NCBI GenBank assembly: GCA_905178155.1
Contig: CAJINV010000005.1
Span: forward strand, 1,108,564-1,172,563
Length of the DNA: 64,000 nucleotides
Source: Amoebophrya sp. A120
Taxonomy: Eukaryota > Protista > Dinoflagellata
Reading direction: 5' to 3'
In this document: piece by piece, positions 21,120 through 56,991 of the stretch
Layout: each line of letters starts with the position of its first letter
Numbering within the stretch: the first letter of the stretch is position 1
Made by a program: the position numbers and the translations under genes
The notes under the pieces: model-generated
Told to the model about the DNA's origin: nothing
Seen by the model: the letters and a program-made list of their open reading frames with translations, nothing else
The model's database searches: none

Positions 21120-24100
21120 ATGTTCCGTGGTGGTCCGGTCGCTGCGAAGCCCGCGGGCAAGGCCGCCGCGAGCGCCGGCGTGCCGAGCAAAGGACCGATA
21201 AAGGCCACGGCAAAAAGCGTTCCGGGGTTGAAGCAAGCGGTCACTGCGGTCCGAGGTGTGAACGCGGTGGCGGCAAAGCCGGCTACTACTCCGCGCGCAC
21301 CGCTAGCGACGCCTCGGATGCCTGGAGGACCAACATCGAGTCCTAGTACCACCACCGGACTAAGGGGAGAGACTCCGAGGGCCAAAGCGAAAGCTGGAGG
21401 AAGTATAGCTGGCAAAGCCGCTGGTCCTCCTGGCGCAAAGGCTTCCGCAAGCCCACGTCGGTCAGCTTCGTTTCAGACGAGCACAACTGCACGTGCAACC
21501 GGTGATCCTTCTACAGCCGTTCAAGAAAACGAAAACGACTCTCAGCTCACGGGGACCCGCCCAGGCGGCCGGAAATCCGCGACGCCGCGGACCAGCGTCC
21601 GCGCGAATTCGAAGCTTGAGGAGGGTATGGTCACACTGAATGTGAGCGAACTGGAAACCCGAATCAGCGACATCATCGCCAGAAAGAGCGGAGCGGCTGT
21701 CATACCAGCCGTAGGTGGAGGAAATGCGGCGATCCGGAAGAGCCTAGCGGCGCCCGGTATCGCCGCCGCTGCGAAAGTGCTTGAAGCCGCAAGAGCGGGC
21801 AATGTGGACGTCTTGACCGAGCTGTGTGGGTAAAGATTTAAGCTTTGGCTCTGCTCCTGTGTCATTTTCGCTAGTGTTTGAAAACTGAAGATCGTCGGTG
21901 TAAAAGTAAATGCGTGATCAGTAGCAACATTCTGATTTTATCAATCTTCACTAAAAACGATTTTCAGCACTCCGGAGCAGTTCTCCAATTTGGACCAAAT
22001 TGAGGACGAGGTCGCCCGTGCCCGCGAGTTCATTACCCCGAATGTCCAGGACGTGCGCTGGCGGACGCCATTGATGTACGCCTCAGCGTTTGTACGAAAA
22101 AGTAAAAGAAAGAAGTGTTTCTTTCAGTATCATGCGGCTGATGTTACGTATTTCTTTTCCAACACAGAGCACGCATTGTCTGCAGGCTCGCTTTTGGCTT
22201 TTCCATGTACACTAAAAGTACCTACCCGCAAATTCGTTGACGGAGGAATTGGAAAACTGGTGTGGAATTCTGTGCTGTAGCTGAGAAGGCATATTGTTGT
22301 TCGTGTTGGAATATTGTCTCAGCCGCACGCCGCTGCCAGGCATTTTTTCGTTTCCATGACCTGCACGCTTCGACGCAGTAATGTTCTTGATCGACGACCC
22401 GTTGTTGCAAGTTAATCTCCGCGACGACACCAACAAAACAGCGTTGATGTACGCTTGTCGCAAGGTCTTCGCACCCGAGGCCCGAACGTCAACTACAAGT
22501 CATACCGCGACCGACAAAACTACGATCAAGCAGCGGCAGCACGACAGCAAGCGCGCCGACATCGTGGAAATGTTGTTGGGCGAGGACGCAGACGTCGGGG
22601 CCGTGGACCAGTACGGCGAAACGGCGCTGCACATCGCGGTCGACGTATGGAAGGGAAAGGATTTGAGCCAAGTCTGGGGTTTGAAAAGTGCAAGTTTCCC
22701 GTATGATATGAAGCATAACGTGAAAGAGTACTCTGGTTTTCTGAGTATCAGCAAGCATGACAAACTCTGTCGACTTCACTCAAGCTTTTCTCTCGATAAA
22801 ACGAGGGAGACCGCAACGTGGTGGACGTGTTACTTACCTACTGCCTCAGCGAGGGCTACGAGGATGTGCTGCTGAAGAAGGACTACGACGGGGTCAGCCT
22901 CCTCGACATTGCCGCCATGAACGAGGACATTAAGATGGGGGTTTTGCTGCTCCGCGCCGGTTTAGAATTTCAGGAGGACGAGCAATCGGAGTTCGCAAAA
23001 GCGGTGAAGCGGTACGACTTTGAGTTTCCGGAGGACATTGAGAACACCACGGATCTGGAACCCGAAATGTACGCAGATGACGGAGAGCAAGACCAGGACA
23101 ACGATGTTAAGAAGACCCGACGTTTGTTGACGACGAAAACCGGGATCGCAGGACCGGACAAGGATAAAAAACTTACGCCCGAATTCCTGGCTTTGGAAAT
23201 GCAGTTGAAGACCCTTGCAGGTAGTCTGTACCGTGCGTCAAGGACCAGTCAGGAGGGCCACATGCAGGTGGATTTGAGTCCGGACTTCGAAAGGAGCGGG
23301 TCTGGTATGGGGATTGGAGCAAATCAACCCGATGTCTTCACTATCACGCCACTAGATCCTCTGCAGGACCAGGAGGACGCATTTCTCTTCGCCAGCCACC
23401 AGTCCGGGCAGATGATGCGGAAAATGTACGAGCGGAGGCAGCGGTCGGTTCTGTCCATGGCGGACATTTTGTCCCCGTCTCTGAGCAACCTCTACTTGAT
23501 GAAGCTCTACCAGGCGAACGAGCCGATTGACGCGGCGCTCGAAGCGCAGATGATCGGCGCGCAAATGATCCAAGTGCAGGAGACGCCGGAGCAGGCGCTG
23601 GACGCATTGCAAAACGCGATGGGGTTGAAGTCGCTGGAGAACCTCCGGATCGCGCTGACGCACTGCGGCCGCCTGGCGGACGAGGTTTCGGACGCGGAGA
23701 AAGCGATGCTGCACTGGGACGAGATGATCCTGAAGGCGGAGAAAGCTGTTGAGGCACTCCACCTAAAAGCGGGGGTGCTGAACCGGTTGGGTATCCAGAT
23801 CGCGAGTTTCTCCGCGAAATACAAGTCGGGCGACGAGCTGACGGAGGAGATTCTGGCGTTAGAGCGGGTGTTGAAGGAAGCCGAGGCGTACGGGTGCTCG
23901 AAGGAGCAAGACGAGGTGGTTTCTGGTTGTTACACGGTGTTGGAAAAAGCGAAACGGCGGCGTGACGCAAGAGCAGAGCTGCGGAAACTGGCGGAAGCAG
24001 GGGATTTCGAATCTTTCGAAATGATCTTGAACCGGTATCGCCAGGTGCGGCTCAGCGGCCACGCGACACCCAACCGCGCACTCTCGACCTTCGAGCGAGT

Positions 24101-35659: not shown

Positions 35660-38600
35660 ATGAAGACGGCCGCCTGCAGTGGTTTGAAGATTCAGCGGCA
35701 TTCCGCGCCGTCCTCTGCTCTGGCGATACAGCAGCAGCTACATCGTCATTGGCCCCGAAGAGCACATTCTGCTGGACGACCGCAGGAGGTACTAGAACAC
35801 CGTCCGTTTTCTACAGCCACCATCGATTCCACGACGAGTGGGGCAGCCTCTAGTTCCTCAAGTAGCTGCTCTCCTGCCTCCTCTTCCACTTCCAGTCCGC
35901 AACACCAGCGCACCAACACTGCCGCCTATGACGCCATCCAAACCGGGTACCTGCCCGGCCAAGGCACGCCGGAGAAACTCCTGCCGCCCTCCGGCACGTT
36001 ACCCGGGTCCAGTGGCGAAGCCTTTCCGCGGTACAGCGGTTATGTGGTCCGTCAAAGTAGCTTCCGTGAAACTTTTAATCGAAGAGCAGAGTTTAGAGGT
36101 TTAAGCGTGAGAAGGCTTAATTTGAGAAATCGGATGCTTTGAGATTTTAGCGTTTAAGCATTTGAGTGCTTAATTTAAGAACTCGGATATTTTTGAGTTT
36201 AAGCGTTCGAGTGCTTAAAATAAGAAAACAGCAGATTGAAATTTGCGCGAGCAAATTTGAATTTGCTCGCAGGTTTTTGAAATTTGCTCCGGAGCTTCTG
36301 CAAGAAGTCTAGAAATAGCGACTCGAACGCTTAAAGTCACCGAAAAAGAAGGAGTCGTTTAGCCATTCGGATGCTTAAATGAAGAGAATTTTTGCAACCG
36401 CCCGAGCAAATTTAAAAAATCGCAGAGCAAATTCCAATTTGCTCACGCAAATTTCAATCTGCTGCTTCCCTATTTTAACCCTGCGAGCCGTTATTTGCCA
36501 ACTTTGTGAAGCTGCTTTGAGTCATTCGAATGTTTTATCGGGGGCGACGAAGCAAAGGGAAAGAGCACAGACAGAGCCAAGACGCTCCGGGGCGCTTTTG
36601 TTAAGTGCCTGCAAGCTCCGCGCAAAACTGTCGCTAGCGTCGTGATCTCAGCAGATCGCGACGCCGGGCTCGCAGGCACTTAACATACACTTTTGCGGGC
36701 AAATTGCCCCAGGCGTCGCGATCTGGAGGGATCACGACGCCCACGGCGGTTTTGCGCGGGGTGGGCACTTAACAAAAGCGCCGCGGGACGCTTTGGCTCT
36801 GTGCTCTTGCACCGGCGGAGCTTTTGTTTCCCAGGGTGCGAAAGCTCTTTGTCTCTCGAGCAACACCAACAACACTCGCGCTCGGTCGCGGTAGATATAG
36901 CGTTTAGGCCTTCGAGTGCTTAAATTCACGGAAACGCAGACTGCAATCTGCGTGAGCAAATTTGAAATTTGCTCTGGGCAAATTCAAATTTGCTCACGCA
37001 GCTGCACAGACAAGCAATCAGTTTAGCCATTCGAATGCTTAACTGCTTGAAAATAAACAATCATTTTAAGCATTCGAATGGCTAATTGACTGGTTATCTT
37101 TGAAGCTGTGTGAGCAAATTTGAAATTTGCTAAAGCAAATTGCAATCTGCGTTTCCGTGAATTTAAGCACTCGAATGCTTAAATTGCGACTTCTTAGTTT
37201 AGGCATTTTAATGCTTAAACCTTATGAACGCGATTTCCTAGATTAAGCATTCGAAGGCTTAAAACAAAGAATGTGTTGCGCGATTAAAAGTTTCACAGAA
37301 GCTGCGGGCCTTTCCGCGGTACAGTGGCGCCGCACTGGCGGACGTGATCCAGCAGTTTCAGTTCGTGAAAAAGCGGGGGCACGACCGGTATTTCAAGCAG
37401 GAGGAGCCGAAAAGCGCGTGCCAAGACCAGAACCACCGGGTGCCGTTAAGCCCCTGGCTACCGGAAACCGGGGCGTCGGTTTTGAGCAGTCCCTGCTACA
37501 ACAAGGAGGTGGACAAGCCGATCGAGGAAATTTTGCCGCCAGGTTTTGATTTTCTGGATTGAGGGACGTGCTACATTTTTTTTGGTTGTATTGCAGGATC
37601 AACATGACAAGATCACTCTTTTTTGGGGGTTCAGCATGAGAGAGAATAAAAACACATTGATCATTCTTTACTTTCCAAGGTGTGAACGAGAATTCCGGCC
37701 GCTTCCTGAAGGACGATGTGAAAGACGCCTACCACGAGTGCTGGACGGTGCACGGCGGCATGGTGATTGGTGCGGACCAATTCACAAAAAACGACCACGA
37801 CCCGCTGCCGGCGTACAAGGGCAAGTTGATTGAGGAAGACTTCGAAGTTTCGGGTGTGACGGGCTCGATCGTCGCACGGAAGTTCAAGGGCATCGACCGA
37901 CCCGGCGGCGGGGTCGCGGACGGACATCCAGAGGTAGGAAGGGTTAGTTTGTTGAAAATAATGAGTTGTGCTTGGTATAGTTGTAGGTCTGTGTGAGCTC
38001 GAGCACGACAAAGTGAATACCAGTAATTCGTCCTGCATGAGTAGAAAACTATGCTCGAAGGTCGCTCCGGGCTGGTTCCAGTTTGAAAACCGAGAAGGGC
38101 GGAAGTGGTATCTGCACCCTTGCTATGGAGAGGGAAGACAAGGGGAAGTTCTGTACAACTTGTGATGTTGCTGACAAAGGGACAAGTTAAACAGTTTGGT
38201 TTATTCTAAATCTTAAGTGGTTTCTTTGCGTTTGCACATGCAAGATTGATCCGCATCACAAGCTGCACCAGAAGTCTTTGATTTTTCAACCTGACACCTC
38301 GTCGGGCCGTTCGCAGTGGAAGCACCCGGTGAGTGGCGAAGTGGACAACTCACCGATCAGCTGGTATTACAAACGCCCCGCCGACAACGGCCTACCCGGC
38401 CGCCCCTGGTTCGCCTACATCCCGAGGTTACCCTGGCACATCAAGACGCTGAACCAGGACCGGATTGTATCGCCCTTGCGCGCGAAGGCGCGGTGGTGGG
38501 TATTCAAATTGGTTGGTGTTGTCCACAGGATTATCTTTTTGTGCAGCATAACGGAAGTAGAGCATCAACTACGTCAACAAGCAAACCGCAACTACATTAT

Positions 38601-44560: not shown

Positions 44561-47500
44561 ATGTCGACGTCCATCGGGCCGGGCGTGATCGAGGACGAGC
44601 AGGCGGCGCTGCTGTTCGGAGGGGGCTCCACCTCCGTTGGCGGTTCTCGGGGATTCCGGCCGCCGAAATGGGGCCGGCGGACTTCGCTCTGCGGGGTGTT
44701 CGTCGCGGTCGTTCTCGCCTTCCTATCCGGGGTACTCGTCACGAAACACTTCTTGACCGCATCCACATCTGAGGATCACGACAAGCCGAGCTTTTGCGCG
44801 AGTTCTACTGCTCCGTCATCTTCCCCTGCAGATGCTGCTGCAATTTCGTCCAAGCATTCCACGTCTGGCACAACTGCCGAAACTTCTCAAAAAGAAGCCG
44901 TGAAGATCGGTCCGGTGGAGGAGGTCGCAGTCGGTGAAAAACAAACGACCCGGCTGGTGGAGAGCGCGGAAAAGGTAAAAGTCCCCGCCCGGAAACCGCT
45001 GATCGTGAAAACGCTGAGCAAAGCCAACGCGCAGAAGAAGAAAATGGAAGACACACGGAAAAAGCTGCTTGCCGCGGCGCCGGGCTCGTCCTTTTTGCAG
45101 GACAACTTCCTGTATGCATTGCAAAAGTATCGTACCCGTATAAATGCATATACAAATTTTCTCAGCATGGAAAATGTAATTTGTAAAAGCGGATTTGTAG
45201 CGCTAATGCATGCCTCCAATTACTTTTACTAGTACTACGAGTGCGATACTTTTGCACAGGATATCCTGGAACCCGGCGGCTTTGACCCCGATGCGGTGTT
45301 TATCCTATGTAAAAACGTTCCCACCACATAGCCAAGAACAAGATGGGGAACCGGCTAGATAAATCCACAAGGTTTGGCTGTTTTGCATGACAAACTTGGA
45401 CTCGTAGTGTAGTACTGTTTTAAATAGCTGAGCAGCATCACGCATCTAGTATACCGCTCCGATTGGAGCATGACAAATTCCAAAACACGACTAGAAAATG
45501 CTTCTCATGAGGCTCCGCATGGGAAACATGCTCAGCATGCAGATTTGCGTATTATACAGCTATGGTGTGCGAACGTTTTTAAATACGATAGCGTTCGGCT
45601 CCCTGGTGGCCAAGTACCTGGACGGCCCCGCGGTGGAGCAGACGAGGAGCAATCTGCCGCAGGCGCATATGGAAGCGTCAGGTTTGAAATCGCCCAAGTT
45701 GAAATTAGTTTGTAATGCATAAAATGCAAGGCATGAACATGAAGTGCCTGTCTTGCCGGGATGGCAAGTGAGGCAGATTGTGAGCCGGAGCAGGGTTTGG
45801 GATAGAACTGCTAAAGGAGCATGACAAAAGCAGTCTTCTGTGCCCAAACAGCATGACAAATTGGATTCCGGTGCTTCGAAAATTTGTCATGCGCCGCTTG
45901 GTTATTGGGCTTCCAACTGGTATCCATTCTATGCATGACAAATCGTTTCAACTTTGTTGATTTTAAACCTGACGCTTCCATAGCGCACGCGGACGTGGTG
46001 AAGTTTTTGCAAAATACCTTATCCTGTGCAAAAGTATCGTATTCGTACTAATCGCAGTCATGCATTACAAATTCTGTTCTCAATGTAAATCCGCATTACA
46101 AATTTTATTTCTCATGCTGAGGGAATTTGTCATGCATTTATACGAGTGCGATACTTTTGCATTCCATATACCTTTTCGGGGAACGCCCTCGGGCGGGCCA
46201 TCCTCGAGCTATGCATTGCAAAAATGTCTGGGTCTGGAAGATTGCAACTTGTCAAGCTGTCTTTGAATTTCAAAACAATCTGTATTGCGTGACCAGCAAC
46301 AGAACTCCCGTTTGTGTTACGCGCCGGAGAGGGCATTTCTCATGCGGAATAGGCATCAGGAAGCCCTCTAAAAATCTGTGATGCTAGACCATACATTGCA
46401 TGCGTCATGGATCATACAAAATATGCATCACAAATCCCAGAATCGTCCAGACCCAGACATTTTTACAGTTGATACGAGCAAATGCATGACAAGTTTGAAG
46501 CTGGGTCGACCGAAACCGATGTTGCCGCACTTCCGTGTGCGTACGGCCAGTCGCTCGAAGTGTATTCCACCAACTTCGGAGTGCGCAAAGACGTGGAAGT
46601 GCATTGCGACATCGCCGAATTTCACTTTACCAGTGACGCGGCAAAAGTGTATTTCGGGACCCAGCTCAGGAAGGAAGTCGCAGCCATGGACACGGATCAC
46701 GATGGGTTTCTGTCCGCGGCAGAAATCAATGATGAACAGTGCGAACTGCTGCAAGCCGACCATCTATATGGCGACGATGACGGGAAACTTACGGTCGAGG
46801 AAATGGAGAGGGCCTGTCGCGACATTTGTATGCCGGACTCGCCTGTTTGGAAAGGCGAAGAGGAGGAGTTCGTTCGGCATGTCTGCCACTGCTGCCCGCC
46901 CCACATCCAAGACACTTTTTTTCCGTACTTCGACGCCTGGCTGAGCACGACCACAACTTCTACAACCACCGCTGCGCCAGTCGTGCTATCCGACGAAGAC
47001 GAGCTTGCCGCCATGGACACGGATCACGATGGGTTTCTGTCCGCGGAAGAAATCCATGACGATCAGTGCGACCTCCTAAAAGCCGATGGCGACGACGATG
47101 GGAGGATTACACTCAAGGAGATGTCTGAAGCCTGTCACAAAATTTGTGTGCCGGGCTCGGAGGCTTCGCAGATGGAACCCGAGCTCGTGATCCTGCACAT
47201 CTGCCACTGTTGCCCGCCGAGCATGCAAGAAGAGTTTTTTGCTGACTATTACGCTAAGCGGAACAACAAGAAAGAGGATACCACCGACGACGACGATGAA
47301 CTCGCAGCCATGGACACGGATCACGATGGGTTTCTGTCCGCAGACGAAATCCATGACGAGCAGTGCGACCTGCTGAAAGCCGACCACCAGTATGGCAACG
47401 ATGATGGGAGAATTACTCTCCAGGAAATACACGACGCCTGTCACGACATCTGTGTCCCGGACTCGTCTATTTCGAAAACCGAGGATCCGCAGATCGTTCG

Positions 47501-50500
47501 GGCTATCTGCCACTGCTGCTCGCCGCACACAAAGGAAGCGTTTTTTCCGTACTTCGACGCCTGGCTGAGCACGACCACAACTTCTACAACCACCGCTGCG
47601 CCAGTTGTGCTATCAGACGAAGACGAGCTTGCCGCCATGGACACGGATCACGATGGGTTTCTGTCCGCGGAAGAAATCCATGACGATCAGTGCGACCTCC
47701 TAAAAGCCGATGGCGACGACGATGGGAGGATTACACTCAAGGAGATGTCTGAAGCCTGTCACAAAATTTGTGTGCCGGGCTCGGAGGCTTCGCAGATGGA
47801 ACCCGAGCTCGTGATCCTGCACATCTGCCACTGTTGCCCGCCGAGCATGCAAGAAGAGTTTTTTGCTGACTATTACGCTAAGCGGAACAACAAGAAAGAG
47901 GATACCACCGACGACGACGATGAACTCGCAGCCATGGACACGGATCACGATGGGTTTCTGTCCGCAGACGAAATCCATGACGAGCAGTGCGACCTGCTGA
48001 AAGCCGACCACCAGTATGGCAACGATGATGGGAGAATTACTCTCCAGGAAATACACGACGCCTGTCACGACATCTGTGTCCCGGACTCGTCTATTTCGAA
48101 AACCGAGGATCCGCAGATCGTTCGGGCTATCTGCCACTGCTGCTCGCCGCACACAAAGGAAGCGTTTTTTCCGTACTTCGACGCCTGGCTGAGCACGACC
48201 ACAACTTCTACAACCACCGCTGCGCCAGTTGTGCTATCAGACGAAGACGAGCTTGCCGCCATGGACACGGATCACGATGGGTTTCTGTCCGCGGAAGAAA
48301 TCCATGACGATCAGTGCGACCTCCTAAAAGCCGATGGCGACGACGATGGGAGGATTACACTCAAGGAGATGTCTGAAGCCTGTCACAAAATTTGTGTGCC
48401 GGGCTCGGAGGCTTCGCAGATGGAACCCGAGCTCGTGATCCTGCACATCTGCCACTGTTGCCCGCCGAGCATGCAAGAAGAGTTTTTTGCTGACTATTAC
48501 GCTAAGCGGAACAACAAGAAAGAGGATACCACCGACGACGACGATGAACTCGCAGCCATGGACACGGATCACGATGGGTTTCTGTCCGCAGACGAAATCC
48601 ATGACGAGCAGTGCGACCTGCTGAAAGCCGACCACCAGTATGGCAACGATGATGGGAGAATTACTCTCCAGGAAATACACGACGCCTGTCACGACATCTG
48701 TGTCCCGGACTCGTCTATTTCGAAAACCGAGGATCCGCAGATCGTTCGGGCTATCTGCCACTGCTGCTCGCCGCACACAAAGGAAGCGTTTTTTCCGTAC
48801 TTCGACGCCTGGCTGAGCACGACCACAACTTCTACAACCACCGCTGTGCCAGTCGTGCTATCAGACGAAGACGAGCCTGCAGCACCATCAAGCTTTCTGA
48901 ACAAACAGCACGGGGGCTTTCCGAAACACACTGTCAGAGCGCCAGGTGTGCAATCAGACAACCACGAAGATCTTGTAGCCATTATGGACACGAACCATGA
49001 TGGCTTTCTGTCCGCAGAAGAAATAAATGACGACCAGTGCAACGTGCTAAAACTCGATCAACAGTCTGGCGACGGTGAGAGGAAAATTTCACTCAAGAAG
49101 TTGGATTACGCCTGTAGCGATTACTGTACCCCGGGTGCGGCTGGTGTGGAGGATCTTGACGAGGACGTGCTCTTGGAAATCTGCCACTGCTGCCCGCCGG
49201 AAATGCAAGAAGCATTTTTCCCTTGGTACTATGCGAACCGTGAGTACTTGAAGGCGCAGGAGGACCTCGATTTTGCGAAAATGGATGCTGACGATGACGG
49301 GCGGCTCATCGCAGACGAGATCCATGACGGAATGTGCGACGCGGGAAAAGTCGACCACGAATGGGGCGACGGCGATGGGCAACTTACGGTGAAGGAAGTG
49401 CACACTATGTGCGATGCGGTGTGCGTGCCGGAATCCGCCCTCGAAACGCTTCCCGAGGAGGAACTGATGGCCCTGTGCCACTGCTGTCCGAAAGGTATGC
49501 AGGGGCGTTTTTTTGCGCACTATTACGGAAGAAAAAGCGGCGCTTTTGCGGGGAATCAGGCCGCAGAGGCCAGAATGGCGCTGGACTACTTGGTCTATCG
49601 CAACCCGGGAGATGTTGACCACGAAGATCTGCAAGTCGCTTCGAGCACCACGACCTCGAACGACAGCGAAGGGGCTGCAGCCCCGTCGGCCTACCAATTT
49701 TGCAGCGTAGTGCACATGAACGAGGCGCCGGTGCGGGTTTGTGGCCGTTTCGACAAGGATGCAAACGCAATCTCCGTGACTATCGCGCGCTGTGTATCCT
49801 GTGCAAAAACGTCGTCCCCACACCATAGTCAAGTTGGGAAATCTGCTAGAGAAAGCAGCCAGCTTTGTTGTTGCGCATGACAAGTTTGGCCTCGATTATA
49901 GCTAGCTCAGCAGCGTCACAGGTCTAGCGCATCGCTCTAATTGGAGCGTCACAAATTCCGAAAAACGAGTACGAAAATTCCTAGCATCATGGGGCTCCGC
50001 ATGAGAAATATTCTCAGCATGCAGATCCATCTGCATATACAACTATGGGGTGGGGACGTTTTTACATAGCATACTACGTGGAGAAGGTAGTCGCGTGGGA
50101 CCTGACCGACTGCCCGCAGCAGAAAGCCACCTGGCAGAACCTGTTTCGGCAGACGTCTGAGAAAACCTACGACAGTTTTTATGGACTGCAAAAATGTCTG
50201 GGTCTGGAAGATTCTGACACTTGTCATGCACGTTTTGCATGAGCCATGATGTCTGTGATGCATCCCCTAGCAATACAGTTTTTTTGAGGGCTTCTTGATG
50301 CGTATTCCGCATGACAAATGCCTTCTCAGCGTAGCAAAAATTGCCTTCCTTTTGGTACTCATGCAATACAATTTTTTTTGGAATCCAAATGCAGCACCAT
50401 CACAAGTTGCATTCTTCCAGACCCAGACATTTTTACATTTGATAGTTTTTACGATCACGCGTTCGAGCCGCAGTGCAACCTGGTGTCCACGTATGCAAGA

Positions 50501-53096
50501 AAGGAACTGTGTAAGTGTAACTCCGTAAAAATGCAGAACATGCAACAGTAGAGTTACACCTGTCATGCCACACGACAAGCATGAAGTCCTCGTTTCATGT
50601 GTGTTTTATCCCCTCATAAGGCACCCATGACAGGTTATTTTCTCTGTCATGTAGAACAAATTTGTGATGCTGTCAGGGAAAGAAAGTTACACTAACACAG
50701 TTTTTTTATTGGATACCACGGACCGATCCGCCCTGCTGGAGAACGGCAGGCCCGACGTGTATCCTGAGTAAAAATGTCCCCACCCCAGAGTTGTCATGCA
50801 GATTTGCGATGACAGGAAGACTTGTAATGCGCATCTCCATGAGAGGCAATACCAGTCGTGTTTTGGAATTTGTGATGCTGTGAACAGGATGAGGAGGTGG
50901 ATTTGTTATGCGGCTTCCCTTGCTAAACTGCACTACAATACAGCCTGCAACTTGTCATGCGTGACTCACAAAACTCCTAGGTTTGTGGTGCTAAGTCCCC
51001 AACTTGACTCTAGTGTGGGGACGTTTTTACTCAGGATAACGTGCAGAAGAGCTTCAACCTGGTCCTGGTGCCGTTCGGCTGGAAGAGCCGCGCGCTGTGG
51101 AAGCAGCACACGGAGAGGCTGGTCGAGCAGCTGGAGCACGACTACCCGCCGCTGAACGCGCGCGAGATGGGCGGCCGGTTGAATTGGCACCGGATCGACG
51201 CCTGGCCGAGGTTTGTGGGTTCGGGGGTCTCCGACTACGAATGCAACGACGTCTATCCAGGAAAAAACACCCATCCCCATCCAATTTGTCATGCAAAACA
51301 TGCATAAAATACACTATTTGTCATGCAAAAAATGGATGGGGATGGGTGTTTTTTCCTGGATAACGTCACGGGATGGGACTTCGTCAACTGCTTCTTCGAC
51401 GCGGACCGCGACTGGTACCGGATCGCACGCTTCGCGAACGACCAGTGCAATCGCGAGTACCAGGCCCAGGGTGGATTGGCGCACATGACGGTGCTCGTCC
51501 AGGCACGCATGGATCACCGTTCCGAGAGCGACAACGCGTACGGATTCGCCATGATGTCCTGGAACACCCTATCCTAAGGAAAAACGTCCCCGCCCCAGAG
51601 TCAAGATGGGGACTTTGCAACACAAACCTCGAAGTTTTGGGAGTCATGCATTACAAATTGCAGGCTCTAGTGTAGTAGTTCAGTTTAGCAAGGGAAGTCG
51701 CATTACAAATCCATCTGCTTAATATCCTGTTTACAGCATTACAAGTTCCAAAACATGATCGGAAATCCCTATCATGTGGATGCGCATTACAAATGCTTTT
51801 GTGCTTGCAGATCTGCATGGCAACTCTGGGGCGGGGATGTTTTCACACAGGATACACCCTGCTGACCCCGGCGGTTCCGGGGTGGAGCTACAAGACCGCG
51901 GCCTTATCAAATGTGAAAATGTCTGGGTCTGGAACGATGTAACTTGTGATGCGCATTTCAGAACACACAAAAATCTCTGATGCATAGGCAGCAAAAGCTG
52001 CTCACTTTCTGTCACCAAAGTGGGGGACTTGCCATGCGGATTCGGCATTGCGGACGCTTCTCGAAACCTGTGATGCAGCTTCCACGCCAGACCTTCTGTG
52101 TCATGCAGAAACAGCATGACTCTTCCAGACCCAGACATTTTTACATTTGATAGGCCTCCACGGTCGCCCACGAGCTGGGCCACGCCCTATTCGGCCTGGA
52201 AGACGAGTACCATTGGACGACAACCAGCACTTTCTTCCCGAATTGCGGCAACGAAAAGTCGCAGTGCAACCGCTGGCTCGACCTGATCGACGCGGGGCTT
52301 TCCGGCTGCTACAAAGGCAGCTGCCAGGAGGAGCAAGGCTACATCGACGGGCCGGAGGTGGACAGCGTCATGGCCTGGTACGGCCGCCAAATGTCGCACA
52401 GCCAGAAGCGGATCTCCTGTTGCAAGTACTTCAAAGTGCACAAGTTCACGCCTGCCTACTGCGACGTGTACAACCGGACGTATCGCAACAGGACCCTGCA
52501 GCGCCCCGTGAACGTCACGGTTCAGCAGGACGGCTGGGTGGTGGACGAAAGTAAGCACAATCTGGCCGGCTACTACAAGGGCCCGGTGCCCTTGCCGCTG
52601 CAGCAGAAGCTGATGGAAACCAGACTGGCGCCGAGGGTGGTATGGCGTTCTCAAATGTTACATTCTCAACTGTTACATGATTTGTCATGCAAAATTTAAA
52701 TTGCAAGCAGAATCGATGTGATTAAGCTGCTGCGCTGCATGATAAATTCTAGAGGAGCCAAACAGGCTGAGAATCTCTCTGTGCCAAATCTGTGATGCGA
52801 GACGTGCAAGGTCATCCCTTTTACTTTTGTCATTCGCGCATCACAGATTCATGTAACAATTGAGAATGTAACAGTTGAGAGCGCCATACATGGACTGGGC
52901 CACGGTTTCCGCCGACGGCGTGGTTCAGCTGGACATCACCTTGAATCCCAAGTCCGAGTTTTATCCGGGCCAGGATGTGGTGCTCGACCTGGCCGGCTTC
53001 TGCGACGACCCGGGGCACTGGCGCAACCAGGAGCTGGACGTGAAAGCCAGTCATCCGCTCTTGGGAAAAGTCGAGTACCCGGACGTGAAAAACTAA
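44561..53096 (+). CDS. 1787-aa membrane-anchored protein: N-terminal TM, nine EF-hand/Cys modules, C-terminal HExxH zinc metallopeptidase (M64-like); 13 introner introns
   Basis: Removing 13 elements plus one TSD each leaves 5364 nt in one open frame; TM LCGVFVAVVLAFLSGVLV; DTDHDGFLSAEE loops; TVAHELGHALFGLEDEY...PNC...DSVM. Confidence 0.88.
45113..45263. mobile_element. Introner, TIR type 3, TSD tcctg
   Basis: tatgcattgcaaaagtatcgtacccgta...tacgagtgcgatacttttgcacaggata. Confidence 0.92.
45301..45590. mobile_element. Introner, TIR type 2, TSD gtgtt/gcgtt
   Basis: tatcctatgtaaaaacgttcccaccacatag...ctatggtgtgcgaacgtttttaaatacgata. Confidence 0.9.
45668..45982. mobile_element. Introner, TIR type 4, TSD gcgca
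   Basis: tatggaagcgtcaggttt...aaacctgacgcttccata. Confidence 0.93.
46020..46168. mobile_element. Introner, TIR type 3 (inverted relative to 45113), TSD tacct
   Basis: tatcctgtgcaaaagtatcgtattcgta...tacgagtgcgatacttttgcattccata. Confidence 0.92.
46210..46474. mobile_element. Introner, TIR type 1, TSD cgagc
   Basis: tatgcattgcaaaaatgtctgggtctgga...tccagacccagacatttttacagttgata. Confidence 0.93.
46916..48876 (+). repeat. Coding tandem repeat, 624-bp unit, about 3.1 near-identical copies (two EF-hand/Cys modules per unit)
   Basis: Identical shadow ORFs at 47076/47700/48324; very few substitutions between units. Confidence 0.95.
49795..50073. mobile_element. Introner, TIR type 2, degenerate TSD ctgtg/ctacg
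   Basis: tatcctgtgcaaaaacgtcgtccccacaccatag...ctatggggtggggacgtttttacatagcata. Confidence 0.88.
50180..50444. mobile_element. Introner, TIR type 1 (inverted relative to 46210), TSD gtttt
   Basis: tatggactgcaaaaatgtctgggtctggaaga...tcttccagacccagacatttttacatttgata. Confidence 0.93.
50492..50715. mobile_element. Introner, TIR type 5, TSD ccacg
   Basis: tatgcaagaaaggaactgtgtaagtgtaact...agttacactaacacagtttttttattggata. Confidence 0.9.
50760..51038. mobile_element. Introner, TIR type 2, TSD acgtg
   Basis: tatcctgagtaaaaatgtccccac...gtggggacgtttttactcaggata. Confidence 0.93.
51254..51362. mobile_element. Minimal introner (109 bp), TIR type 6, TSD acgtc
   Basis: 30-bp perfect TIR tatccaggaaaaaacacccatccccatcca. 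Confidence 0.94.
51570..51854. mobile_element. Introner, TIR type 2 (inverted relative to 50760), TSD caccc
   Basis: tatcctaaggaaaaacgtccccgccccagag...ctctggggcggggatgttttcacacaggata. Confidence 0.92.
51905..52152. mobile_element. Introner, TIR type 1, TSD ggcct
   Basis: tatcaaatgtgaaaatgtctgggtctggaa...ttccagacccagacatttttacatttgata. Confidence 0.93.
52641..52888. mobile_element. Introner, TIR type 7, degenerate TSD ggtgg/catgg
   Basis: tatggcgttctcaaatgttacattctcaactgttacatga...tcatgtaacaattgagaatgtaacagttgagagcgccata. Confidence 0.9.
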
Positions 53097-54731: not shown

Positions 54732-56991
54732 ATGGCTTCCTTCAAGTCTATACCGGTGATTACGCCCTACACCTACAGTTCGAACATGGGTCCGGGCAGC
54801 GAGCACGGGGGTCCCTTTTACCCGCTCGGGCAGCAGTACCACCAGCCTGACATGCTGGCCGACCAGCTGAAGAAGGAGCGAAATCCCCCGCGAGCGGTGA
54901 TCACGGGCGTGAACACGGACTTCAAGCTGGACTCCTCTCGCCGGCTGCGGTGGAACGACCCAAAGTCCGGGGTCGTCGACCAGTGTACCATGTACACCTA
55001 CGGGCAGCCGGACTCTCACCGCTCCTGCCTATGCATTGCAAATATCGATCTGGGTCTGGAAGGTCGTTGCAAATTGTCATGCTAGTACGGTTGGATCGTG
55101 CAAAATAAAAATTTCAATTTGTGTTGCATGGCTACCAAAAGTAGTTCGTTGTCCACTTTTATTAAACAAGTTTAGAGGCAGCTTATTCATCTCATGCAGG
55201 GGAGGCATGATAGAGATCTCACAGAATCTTCTGTCATGCTCATGGGCCATGAAATAAAACCAGCATGACCACAAGTCTCGCTATTCTCCAGAAGATCCAG
55301 ACATATATTTGCAGTTGATACTGCGTCACCAGCTACAACAAGGACGGCCTCACGATGAACTCCTTGTCCCACTACAACAAGGTCGGCGCCAAACACCTGC
55401 AAGCCCAGTCGCGGTCCAGTCTATCAAAAGTAAAAATGTCTGGGTCCTCTGGGAACTTGTGATGCTGGGTAGCGTCTCATGATGAGGCTACAAATGCTGG
55501 CTCAGCATGACAAGTTTCTGAGCTCCTCGGTGTTGCCTATTCTGCATGACAAACTGCGTAGTTTCTGCATCACGGAAAAGCGGAGCTGCTCTTGGGTAAC
55601 GTGCATGACAGATCATTTAAGAGTCATGCCAGACAAGCATGACAAACATGAACAATTCTTCCAGACCCACACATTTTTACTTTTGATACCGTCCCATCCA
55701 CTCCTACTTCAGCGAACCGAGAAGAAAGGTGCCGGACATCGGAACCAAGGTGTGGGATAACTTCGGCATCGACGGCCACATGAAGGCAACGTCAGAGGAG
55801 ATCGGCAACTGGTCGCCGTTGTGGTACTTGATAGTGTGAATGAAATTCTCAACTTCTTATTTCGGCGTGCTTTAAATTTGATATTGTTTCCTCTGCGCTT
55901 GCTTTCTCTTCCAAACGAAAAACGTTGTTGATCCGCAACTTGATAGTTGCCCTCGGTATTAGTGCACTTGAAGAAGTTGTCGCAAAATCGTTTATTGAGA
56001 CGGCGATCCTCGGCCTCGGGCTAAAGCTAATCCTGAAGAAGTTCTTACAGGGTTCTCATGCGAGAATCTGTTGAAAAAAAATAACCACCAGGTACCGCGC
56101 CGTGAACGACATGAACGTGTATGCCAACCTGCGACCGGACACCATGAAAGCCCTCGGTCTCGAATACGAGGAGCCGGGCGTCAGATACGGCATGATCAAC
56201 GGGGAGTTTCTTCCCAAGGTCGAAAAAGTGAACGATTCCGCGCGAAGTTCGGCGTGGAGCGAGAACCACAAGTACGTGGGGTATCCCAAAGAACCCTCCA
56301 TGCAGGCCCGGGCCTACTACGGCAACGACGCGCGGACCAGCTTCGCCTTGGCCGACGTCCAGAAGTACATGTCACCGCTATGCCACTGCAAACCAATTTG
56401 TCAGTCGTGTTTGGGTCGGGATTATTTCTGGTCATGCGAGTTTATGTAAAAGTACTACAGAAACTTCAACAGGATCTTTATCTTTTGTGATGGTACGAAC
56501 ATAGATAGGACAAGGAGCATTTTTGAGGGTTATTTCTTCTTGTTTTCTCATGCTGGGCGTTGTACCAATTGCAATAATTTTCCAGACGACATAAAGATAC
56601 CCCTGAAGTTGTAGTTGTCAAAACAATCGCAAACTTGTCATGCGGTCGTGGACCACAGAAAGCCTTTGAATATTTCCACTCTGAATAGCTTGTGCACAGC
56701 AACACAACTAGAACTACGCTGCATCCTTTACCCAGACCCAGCAGACAACATGTTTGCAGTGAATAACCGGTCTCCATCGCGAACTCGGACCCCACGTCTC
56801 TCCTGCGCGCACAGAAGAACCGGGTTCGGGAGGAGGTTTTGGCGCAGGTGCGCCGGGCACCGCAGTACGGGAGCCACCGGGGGAGCGGGGGCGGGAGGGC
56901 ACTGTCCAGCGGAAGGACCGCGTCGACAACGCACTCCACACCGAGGGCCGGCGACTTCATGCGGAAGTCCGCCTCCACACCGAGAATGTGA
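54732..56991 (+). CDS. Hypothetical protein with three introners and one GT-AG intron (55824-56091)
   Basis: Frame restored across elements: HRSC|VTSYNK, SRSS|PIHSY, YMSP|VSIANSD; stop at 56989-56991. Confidence 0.8.
55030..55320. mobile_element. Introner, diverged TIR type 1, TSD ctgcc/ctgcg
   Basis: tatgcattgcaaatatcgatctgggtctgga...tccagacatatatttgcagttgata. Confidence 0.87.
55422..55688. mobile_element. Introner, TIR type 1, TSD cagtc/ccgtc
   Basis: tatcaaaagtaaaaatgtctgggtc...gacccacacatttttacttttgata. Confidence 0.9.
56379..56765. mobile_element. Introner, strongly diverged type 1-like, TSD accgc/accgg
   Basis: tatgccactgcaaac...gtttgcagtgaata with a residual cagacccag motif. Confidence 0.8.

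Follow-up and report, generated by a model that had tools for sequence, protein, structure and literature searches.

The introners of the dinoflagellate Amoebophrya sp. A120 (Farhat et al. 2021, PMC7789003) have been described as repeated families with inverted repeats that start with TAT, followed by seven variable bases and an A-run; they are flanked by direct repeats of 3-5 nt, have non-canonical borders and have been explained by a hairpin model. That paper leaves their mode of splicing open: it states that the position of the border is unknown and reports U2, U4, U5, U6 and nearly all spliceosomal proteins for A120, with U1 undetected. In its main and supplementary text, the term "orientation" refers to genes only, and its figures S19-S23, which concern repeat positions, may bear on the register of the cuts. 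The elements analysed here, in a window of 64,000 nucleotides of the A120 genome (the whole stretch of DNA that was studied), fit these published introners, a class that is already known: all of the above features are shared, host genes are co-oriented in both cases, and nothing in the published description that we could compare marks a difference in kind.

Three other systems are relevant. Introners of Polarella glacialis and Aureococcus (Roy et al., bioRxiv 10.1101/2020.10.14.339549) are likewise derived from transposons, flanked by target duplications and present in either orientation. However, as described there, they recruit GT/GC/GA and AG from the element or the duplication, whereas none of these is needed here and no splice dinucleotides were found to be recruited from an element end or duplication; moreover, their either-orientation classes are biased towards one orientation, whereas the A120 elements are unbiased. 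The nonconventional introns of Euglena (Nomura et al. 2025, PMC12501133) also lack GT-AG and have paired terminal motifs, a proposed MITE origin and fixed cut spacers, of which the 3' one is longer, as in the A120 elements. This likeness concerns only the way of working, as the lineage is unrelated, and the details differ: the reported Euglena signature (N3CDG...CH'GN5-6|R) comprises CAG/CTG, spacers of 3 and 5-6 nt and exons that preferably begin with a purine, whereas the A120 elements (N-TAT...ATA-N4) have TAT/ATA, spacers of 1 and 4 nt and no such preference. In Fritillaria borealis (bioRxiv 10.1101/2025.08.15.670264, PMC11282704), non-canonical introns likewise stem from non-autonomous inverted-repeat transposons and are described as substrates of a modified major spliceosome; their preferred AG-AC/AG-AT borders lie in the repeats themselves, whereas the cuts here lie outside the repeats, in arbitrary sequence. 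The method of the 2022 introner survey allowed opposite-orientation insertion. A search of the openly accessible literature, which took in 12 of the 14 supplementary files of PMC12130899 but neither paywalled articles nor theses nor supplements on bioRxiv, found neither an unbiased orientation nor a cut register of -1/+4 for A120 introners.

Thirteen elements in one gene

AT-richer inserts bounded by TAT..ATA inverted repeats punctuate the GC-richer coding sequence of the window, whose GC content of 50.1% is compatible with the published A120 composition (48.8% AT). Coding signal lies nearly all on the plus strand (307 versus 34 scored 90-nt pieces under a window-trained model), as in co-oriented gene blocks. 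A single plus-strand gene at 44561-53096 carries 13 of these elements with 5-bp target duplications, ten perfect and three imperfect (45301, 49795 and 52641), and consists of 14 exons and 1,787 codons once they are removed. Eleven of them lie within 45113-51854, the span to which a sequence-only reading had drawn attention and whose types 1, 2 and 3 correspond to families 0, 2 and 1 below. The first five elements are 45113-45263 (family 1, forward; duplication TCCTG/TCCTG), 45301-45590 (family 2, forward; GTGTT/GCGTT), 45668-45982 (family 4, plus strand), 46020-46168 (family 1, reverse) and 46210-46474 (family 0, forward), the last three with perfect duplications. Downstream of a long exon follow 49795-50073 (family 2, forward; CTGTG/CTACG), 50180-50444 (family 0, reverse), 50492-50715 (family 3, plus), 50760-51038 (family 2, reverse), 51254-51362 (family 10, plus; 109 nt with a near-perfect predicted hairpin), 51570-51854 (family 2, forward), 51905-52152 (family 0, forward) and 52641-52888 (family 6, plus; GGTGG/CATGG).

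Cutting out the element together with 5 nt at each of the 13 sites yields the open reading frame of 1,787 codons. Retaining any single element introduces a premature stop (13 of 13), and taking out 3, 4, 6 or 7 extra nucleotides instead of 5 truncates the frame at the first 12 sites. The insertions occupy all three codon phases. As to the host protein, Pfam was run on five exon pieces and matched EF-hand families in the large repeat exon, together with a weak Peptidase_M64-like HELGH stretch (E 0.001, below the cut-off). Besides the EF-hand repeats and this zinc-protease-like motif, a hydrophobic stretch is visible by eye near residues 45-60. The large exon (46480-49794, 3.3 kb) is built of EF-hand/cysteine repeats in a tandem unit of 624 bp and contains no element; flanking exons measure 32-480 nt.

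In contigs of run X3, each of the 13 elements is skipped: one contig lacks the first five and another the remaining eight, which are consecutive, and every skip equals the element plus 5 nt. Opposite orientations are skipped on one contig in the case of 45113 and 46020 (family 1), of 50760 versus 49795 and 51570 (family 2) and of 50180 and 51905 (family 0); 46210 and 50180 fall on separate contigs, which break in the tandem-repeat exon. That runs X1-X4 are RNA was a guess from the run listing and is not on record, and the next gene was therefore used as a control. There, one 2.0-kb contig each in X1 and X2 (one sample) skips a canonical plus-strand GT-AG intron (55824-56091) together with three elements and ends at intergenic DNA. 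Two of these elements belong to family 0 in opposite orientations (55030-55320, forward, CTGCC/CTGCG; 55422-55688, reverse, CAGTC/CCGTC), and the third is divergent and carries no strand call (56379-56765, ACCGC/ACCGG). Run X5, in contrast, is unbroken through the GT-AG intron and the intergenic DNA and has zero depth among the joints listed. Because X1 and X2 also skip the GT-AG intron, while X5 keeps the elements, X1 and X2 are spliced RNA and X5 is DNA. X3 has two next-gene joints in common with X1 and X2 and does not cover the intergenic DNA.

With 13 joints in the host gene and three in the next, 16 RNA joints over elements are available, all from cDNA-derived contigs that carry no per-junction efficiency. 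They show that elements in both orientations are removed from RNA scar-free, as element plus 5 nt, and the claim of the sequence-only reading that both orientations restore the frame identically is borne out. No RNA joint was found for 58805 or 59322 among the matches listed, and the raw-read RNA runs X8-X10 gave 0 reads on the host-gene exons, with only 90-95% matches to related copies. At 46210-46258, 50398-50444 and 45364-45507 the latter reads run from such copies into different flanking sequence and thus represent unspliced copies from other loci or another strain. Two low-depth, unspliced X1 contigs lie inside the 56379 element (depth 4 and 2.2, compared with 95.9).

Orientation and cut register

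The sequence-only reading had proposed that three pairs of elements within this gene are reverse complements internally. For each pair, 30 nt were trimmed per end, which removes the terminal repeats, and global alignments were compared with 300 dinucleotide shuffles each. All three pairs proved to be internal reverse complements, at exactly the coordinates proposed: 45113/46020 (type 3) scored 48 in reverse complement versus 4 forward (z 6.3 versus 1.5; 61 of 103 columns identical), 46210/50180 (type 1) 194 versus 22 (z 19.7 versus 4.5; 153 of 208) and 50760/51570 (type 2) 268 versus -32 (z 29.0 versus 0.3; 180 of 225).

Copies beyond the gene were collected by a pattern scan for the family 0 end, which led to at least 152 loci (about 408 kb) on contigs of one assembly prefix; family sizes in this set therefore differ from genome proportions, the loci may come from another strain than the window, and splicing there is inferred from the reading frame only. 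Window and outside loci together contain 292 unique elements, 225 with a perfect 5-bp duplication; the scan gave 6 matches in shuffled versus 326 in real sequence, and duplication lengths of 3, 4, 6, 7, 8 and 9 fit only 5, 1, 0, 0, 1 and 0 of the 292. A relaxed scan gave 328 elements, 298 of them in 13 families with median lengths of 109-324 nt and no inconsistent orientation edge. At such lengths the elements would be too short to encode a transposase. TAT, seven variable bases and at least three A are present at the termini, except that families 4, 6, 7 and 12 lack the A-run there and keep TAT..ATA. A candidate divergent TAT..ATA element with CGACG/AAACG (22646-22798), which no family profile matches, lies just before a long open reading frame.

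Host strand was called with a periodic Markov model trained on the open reading frames of the window, which assigned strand and frame correctly to 126 of 152 pieces of 120 nt that had been held out from training; where a local and a locus-level call were both available, they agreed in 144 of 150 cases. A profile-based set with no TAT/ATA requirement comprised 361 full-length copies, 296 with a strand call and 289 of these with at least three of five duplication positions matching. Relative to the transcript, these 289 copies (window and at least 152 outside loci) are oriented 144:145, and the genome-wide bias that the sequence-only reading proposed to look for is absent from them. Families 0, 1 and 2 individually give 71:64, 21:22 and 11:18, or 64:63, 13:17 and 8:14 in the relaxed scan of the same loci, and a check independent of strand calls counted 23 same and 33 opposite orientations among neighbouring same-family pairs. 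The reading frame behaves alike in both directions: among 271 outside copies, 101 had assessable flanks, and these fit removal of the element plus 5 nt in 50 of 53 and 47 of 48 copies of the one and the other orientation. Insertion is thus random in direction, and the elements have the structure of non-autonomous inverted-repeat transposons with a 5-bp staggered target.

At a perfect duplication, six or more cut registers are equivalent, so that only mismatched copies, available at six of the 16 RNA joints, can choose between them. At 45301, 52641 and 55422, the upstream bases at positions 1-2 are kept (at 45301 position 2 is the informative one; 52641 is read in X1, X2 and X3), which allows registers -3 to 0; at 49795, upstream positions 1-4 are kept, which allows -1 to +1; and at 55030 and 56379 the RNA carries the downstream base at position 5, which allows -5 to -1. 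The sole register compatible with all 16 joints is -1. If one register is shared, the intron therefore appears to be N-TAT...ATA-NNNN, with 1 nt between the upstream cut and the 5' repeat and 4 nt between the 3' repeat and the downstream cut; the lower bound of the register comes from one junction (49795, in X3 only) and the upper from two junctions in X1/X2 (one also in X3). This shared -1/+4 cut, obtained from six imperfect duplications, goes beyond what the sequence-only reading had noticed. At this register the mRNA takes the first four bases from the upstream copy of the duplication and the fifth from the downstream copy. When likeness to coding sequence was used to decide which copy supplies the exonic base, none of the duplication positions gave a signal. 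The 56379 element had been missed by both element scans; its inner stem is displaced by 1 nt relative to TAT/ATA, and yet it too is cut at the shared register.

Because the stagger of 5 nt equals the duplication, removal is scar-free in all codon phases and no target-site preference is needed. Duplication composition equals the exon background, and there is no base preference at position 5. Since the element is symmetric while the cut is polar, polarity is presumably set by the direction of the transcript.

Recognition of the intron ends

The elements do not have U2-type GT/GC-AG borders. Among 203 copies with a perfect duplication (window and outside loci), 11 would allow GT-AG in some register and 14 GY-AG; of the 13 host-gene elements, none allows GT-AG in any equivalent register. 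At register -1, G stands at +1 in 98 of 289 copies (background 478 of 1,445) and AG at the end in 20 of 289, both in agreement with the exon background. The composition of the 5' end is nearly identical to that of the reverse-complemented 3' end, and pyrimidines make up 56% of the last 40 nt in either orientation, owing to the U-run of the repeat. Private changes do not differ significantly between 5' and 3' blocks (smallest p 0.056), nor do their rates between 5' and 3' ends and between sense and antisense motifs (139/3364 versus 116/3416). Internal strand-specific branch-point or pyrimidine signals are therefore unlikely, as removal is identical in both directions, orientation is unbiased, strand-specific conservation was not found and few copies (11 of 203) could offer GT-AG. 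To this extent the sequence-only reading, which had argued against any such signals, is partly supported: the argument holds for the interiors of the elements and fails to extend to their ends, where the terminal repeat could hold spliceosome-like signals in both orientations. Symmetric and canonical-like signals are not mutually exclusive, as the repeat could offer U at +2, A at +3 and a U-run near the 3' end.

The same reading had put forward a bidirectional motif as a candidate signal. GCATNACA is 66-fold enriched in the elements (12.4 versus 0.19 per kb), its sense and antisense copies are equally conserved, and just 186 of 289 copies carry it on both strands; for example, 50760-51038 has five antisense and no exact sense copies, while 51570-51854 has four sense and no antisense ones. 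Its use as a branch point is ruled out: 7 of the 16 spliced copies contain no exact sense copy, and in the rest it lies 49 to 198 nt from the 3' cut. GCATNACA is thus unlikely to be a splicing signal, and may instead be a site for mobilisation at the DNA level.

As recognition is orientation-blind, the signal must lie in the ends. TAT and ATA are the best-kept positions of the elements, and a few copies have changed terminal bases and yet intact duplications. Such changes number 4 versus 10 between the two ends, which is not significant (p 0.18); the 1 versus 8 that remained after rows with unclear boundaries were dropped by eye and post hoc was not relied upon. In one family 0 copy (L070:945-1211), GAT..ATC ends may represent a compensatory change of the terminal pair, although its duplication matches at three of five positions and its boundaries are uncertain. 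The hairpin, the other symmetric candidate of the sequence-only reading, is predicted in both orientations: for the first 120 of 246 copies (63 in one orientation and 57 in the other), the mean pairing over positions 11-25 exceeds 0.5 in 97% and 88%, respectively, and predicted folding is more stable than that of shuffles in 15 of the 16 spliced copies (z -4.3 to -14.3). However, neither of two strand-asymmetry tests detected selection at the RNA level. G-U and A-C juxtapositions number 207:213, and the sense strand is the more stably folded in 123 of 246 copies, although the power of both tests is limited, as single mismatches may be tolerated in a 20-bp stem and many were inherited from master copies. 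These null tests, together with the splicing of 56379, whose predicted fold is no better than that of shuffles (z -1.0), speak against guidance by the stem. Nonetheless, the predicted hairpin is a plausible splicing determinant.

With these observations, roughly an even chance can be given to the following account. The elements would be short introns that probably descend from non-autonomous DNA transposons and are removed in either orientation by a likely modified major spliceosome that reads only the TAT..ATA ends and cuts at -1/+4. The two ends, predicted to pair into a stem, would read alike on either strand and so present an identical substrate in each orientation, with the transcript direction giving polarity. 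The stem may replace end definition of the U1/U2AF type, and the leading TAT may provide U at +2 and A at +3 of the intron, as in canonical GUA donors. The 5-nt total stagger would delete exactly one duplication copy, and the GCATNACA repeats would bind the mobilising enzyme on DNA. A modified major spliceosome is favoured because, among the six registers of a perfect duplication, only -1 gives U at +2 and A at +3 (the sole confirmed canonical intron begins GTAC), because element and canonical introns leave the same transcripts, and because U2, U4, U5 and U6 are reported. Nevertheless, a spliceosome is hard to reconcile with introns in which neither a fixed G at +1 nor a terminal AG nor a branch site at a set position was found.

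The same end-defined, orientation-blind rule might instead be executed by a structure-guided endonuclease and a ligase, much as has been proposed for Euglena, where excision would yield circles; this is a tentative alternative. A dinucleotide requirement is absent at both cuts, as is an internal branch motif at a fixed distance; fixed cut spacers and a terminal stem recall the Euglena N3CDG...CH'GN5-6 arrangement (PMC12501133), and U1 has gone undetected in A120 (PMC7789003). However, register -1 sets U and A at +2/+3 like canonical donors, canonical and element introns leave one transcript together, 15% of canonical A120 introns are reported to bear the same repeats (Farhat et al., PMC7789003), and the tests for selection on the stem were null. 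It is conceivable, although doubtful, that the lineage possesses a second, non-spliceosomal way of intron removal, convergent with that of Euglena, in which ruler-type machinery would accept any TAT..ATA-capped stem regardless of strand and interior, and in which the -1/+4 cut removing one duplication would make insertions harmless at any site and in any direction.

Recognition by a spliceosome through sequence alone, the hairpin being incidental, is unlikely. Here the repeat would serve as a donor-like NUAU(C/G) at the 5' end; at the 3' end it would contribute a U-run and, in its AUA, a branch adenosine at a fixed distance (5 or 7 nt) from an acceptor that does not depend on AG. The conservation of TAT/ATA and the pyrimidine content of the last 40 nt in either orientation accord with this, as do the lack of strand asymmetry in pairing and the cutting of the weakly folding 56379 relative to TAT/ATA despite its inner-stem offset. 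However, TAT and ATA are probably too frequent to mark ends without pairing or a protein bridge, and some copies have altered terminal bases with intact duplications, although splicing of those copies is only presumed. A branch-to-acceptor distance of 5 or 7 nt is also at or below the spliceosomal range, which counts against this reading.

Two further explanations would remove the phenomenon itself. That the skips, or at least their register, are template switches of reverse transcriptase is very improbable: a hairpin flanked by short direct repeats is a described signature of this artefact, short-read data included (PMC8240250), and all RNA support is cDNA-derived, but the 1,787-codon frame requires 13 removals in vivo, eight consecutive skips lie on one contig, and the 49795 joint matches just 2 nt and retains the upstream copy, whereas a switch at the hairpin base would be expected to retain the downstream one. 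DNA-level excision, or skipping contigs from element-free DNA, can be practically dismissed: the elements are built like a DNA transposon and the RNA status of X1-X3 was only guessed from the run listing, but X1 and X2 also skip the GT-AG intron and stop at intergenic DNA, and X5 continues through introns and the intergenic region and has no depth at any of the element joints listed.

Orientation-blindness and an apparently fixed register of end-defined removal make the question of how A120 introners are spliced directly testable, and a substrate as precise as N-TAT...ATA-NNNN would permit rule-based annotation of many ambiguous borders in genomes of this type. The window also contains a different insert of 1.29 kb in a coding region (36020-37327), which is not of the TAT..ATA type. 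It has near-perfect direct repeats of 20 nt at 36020-36039 and 37308-37327 and, inside these, inverted arms of 23 nt at 36059-36081 and 37281-37303, together with many palindromic internal repeats.
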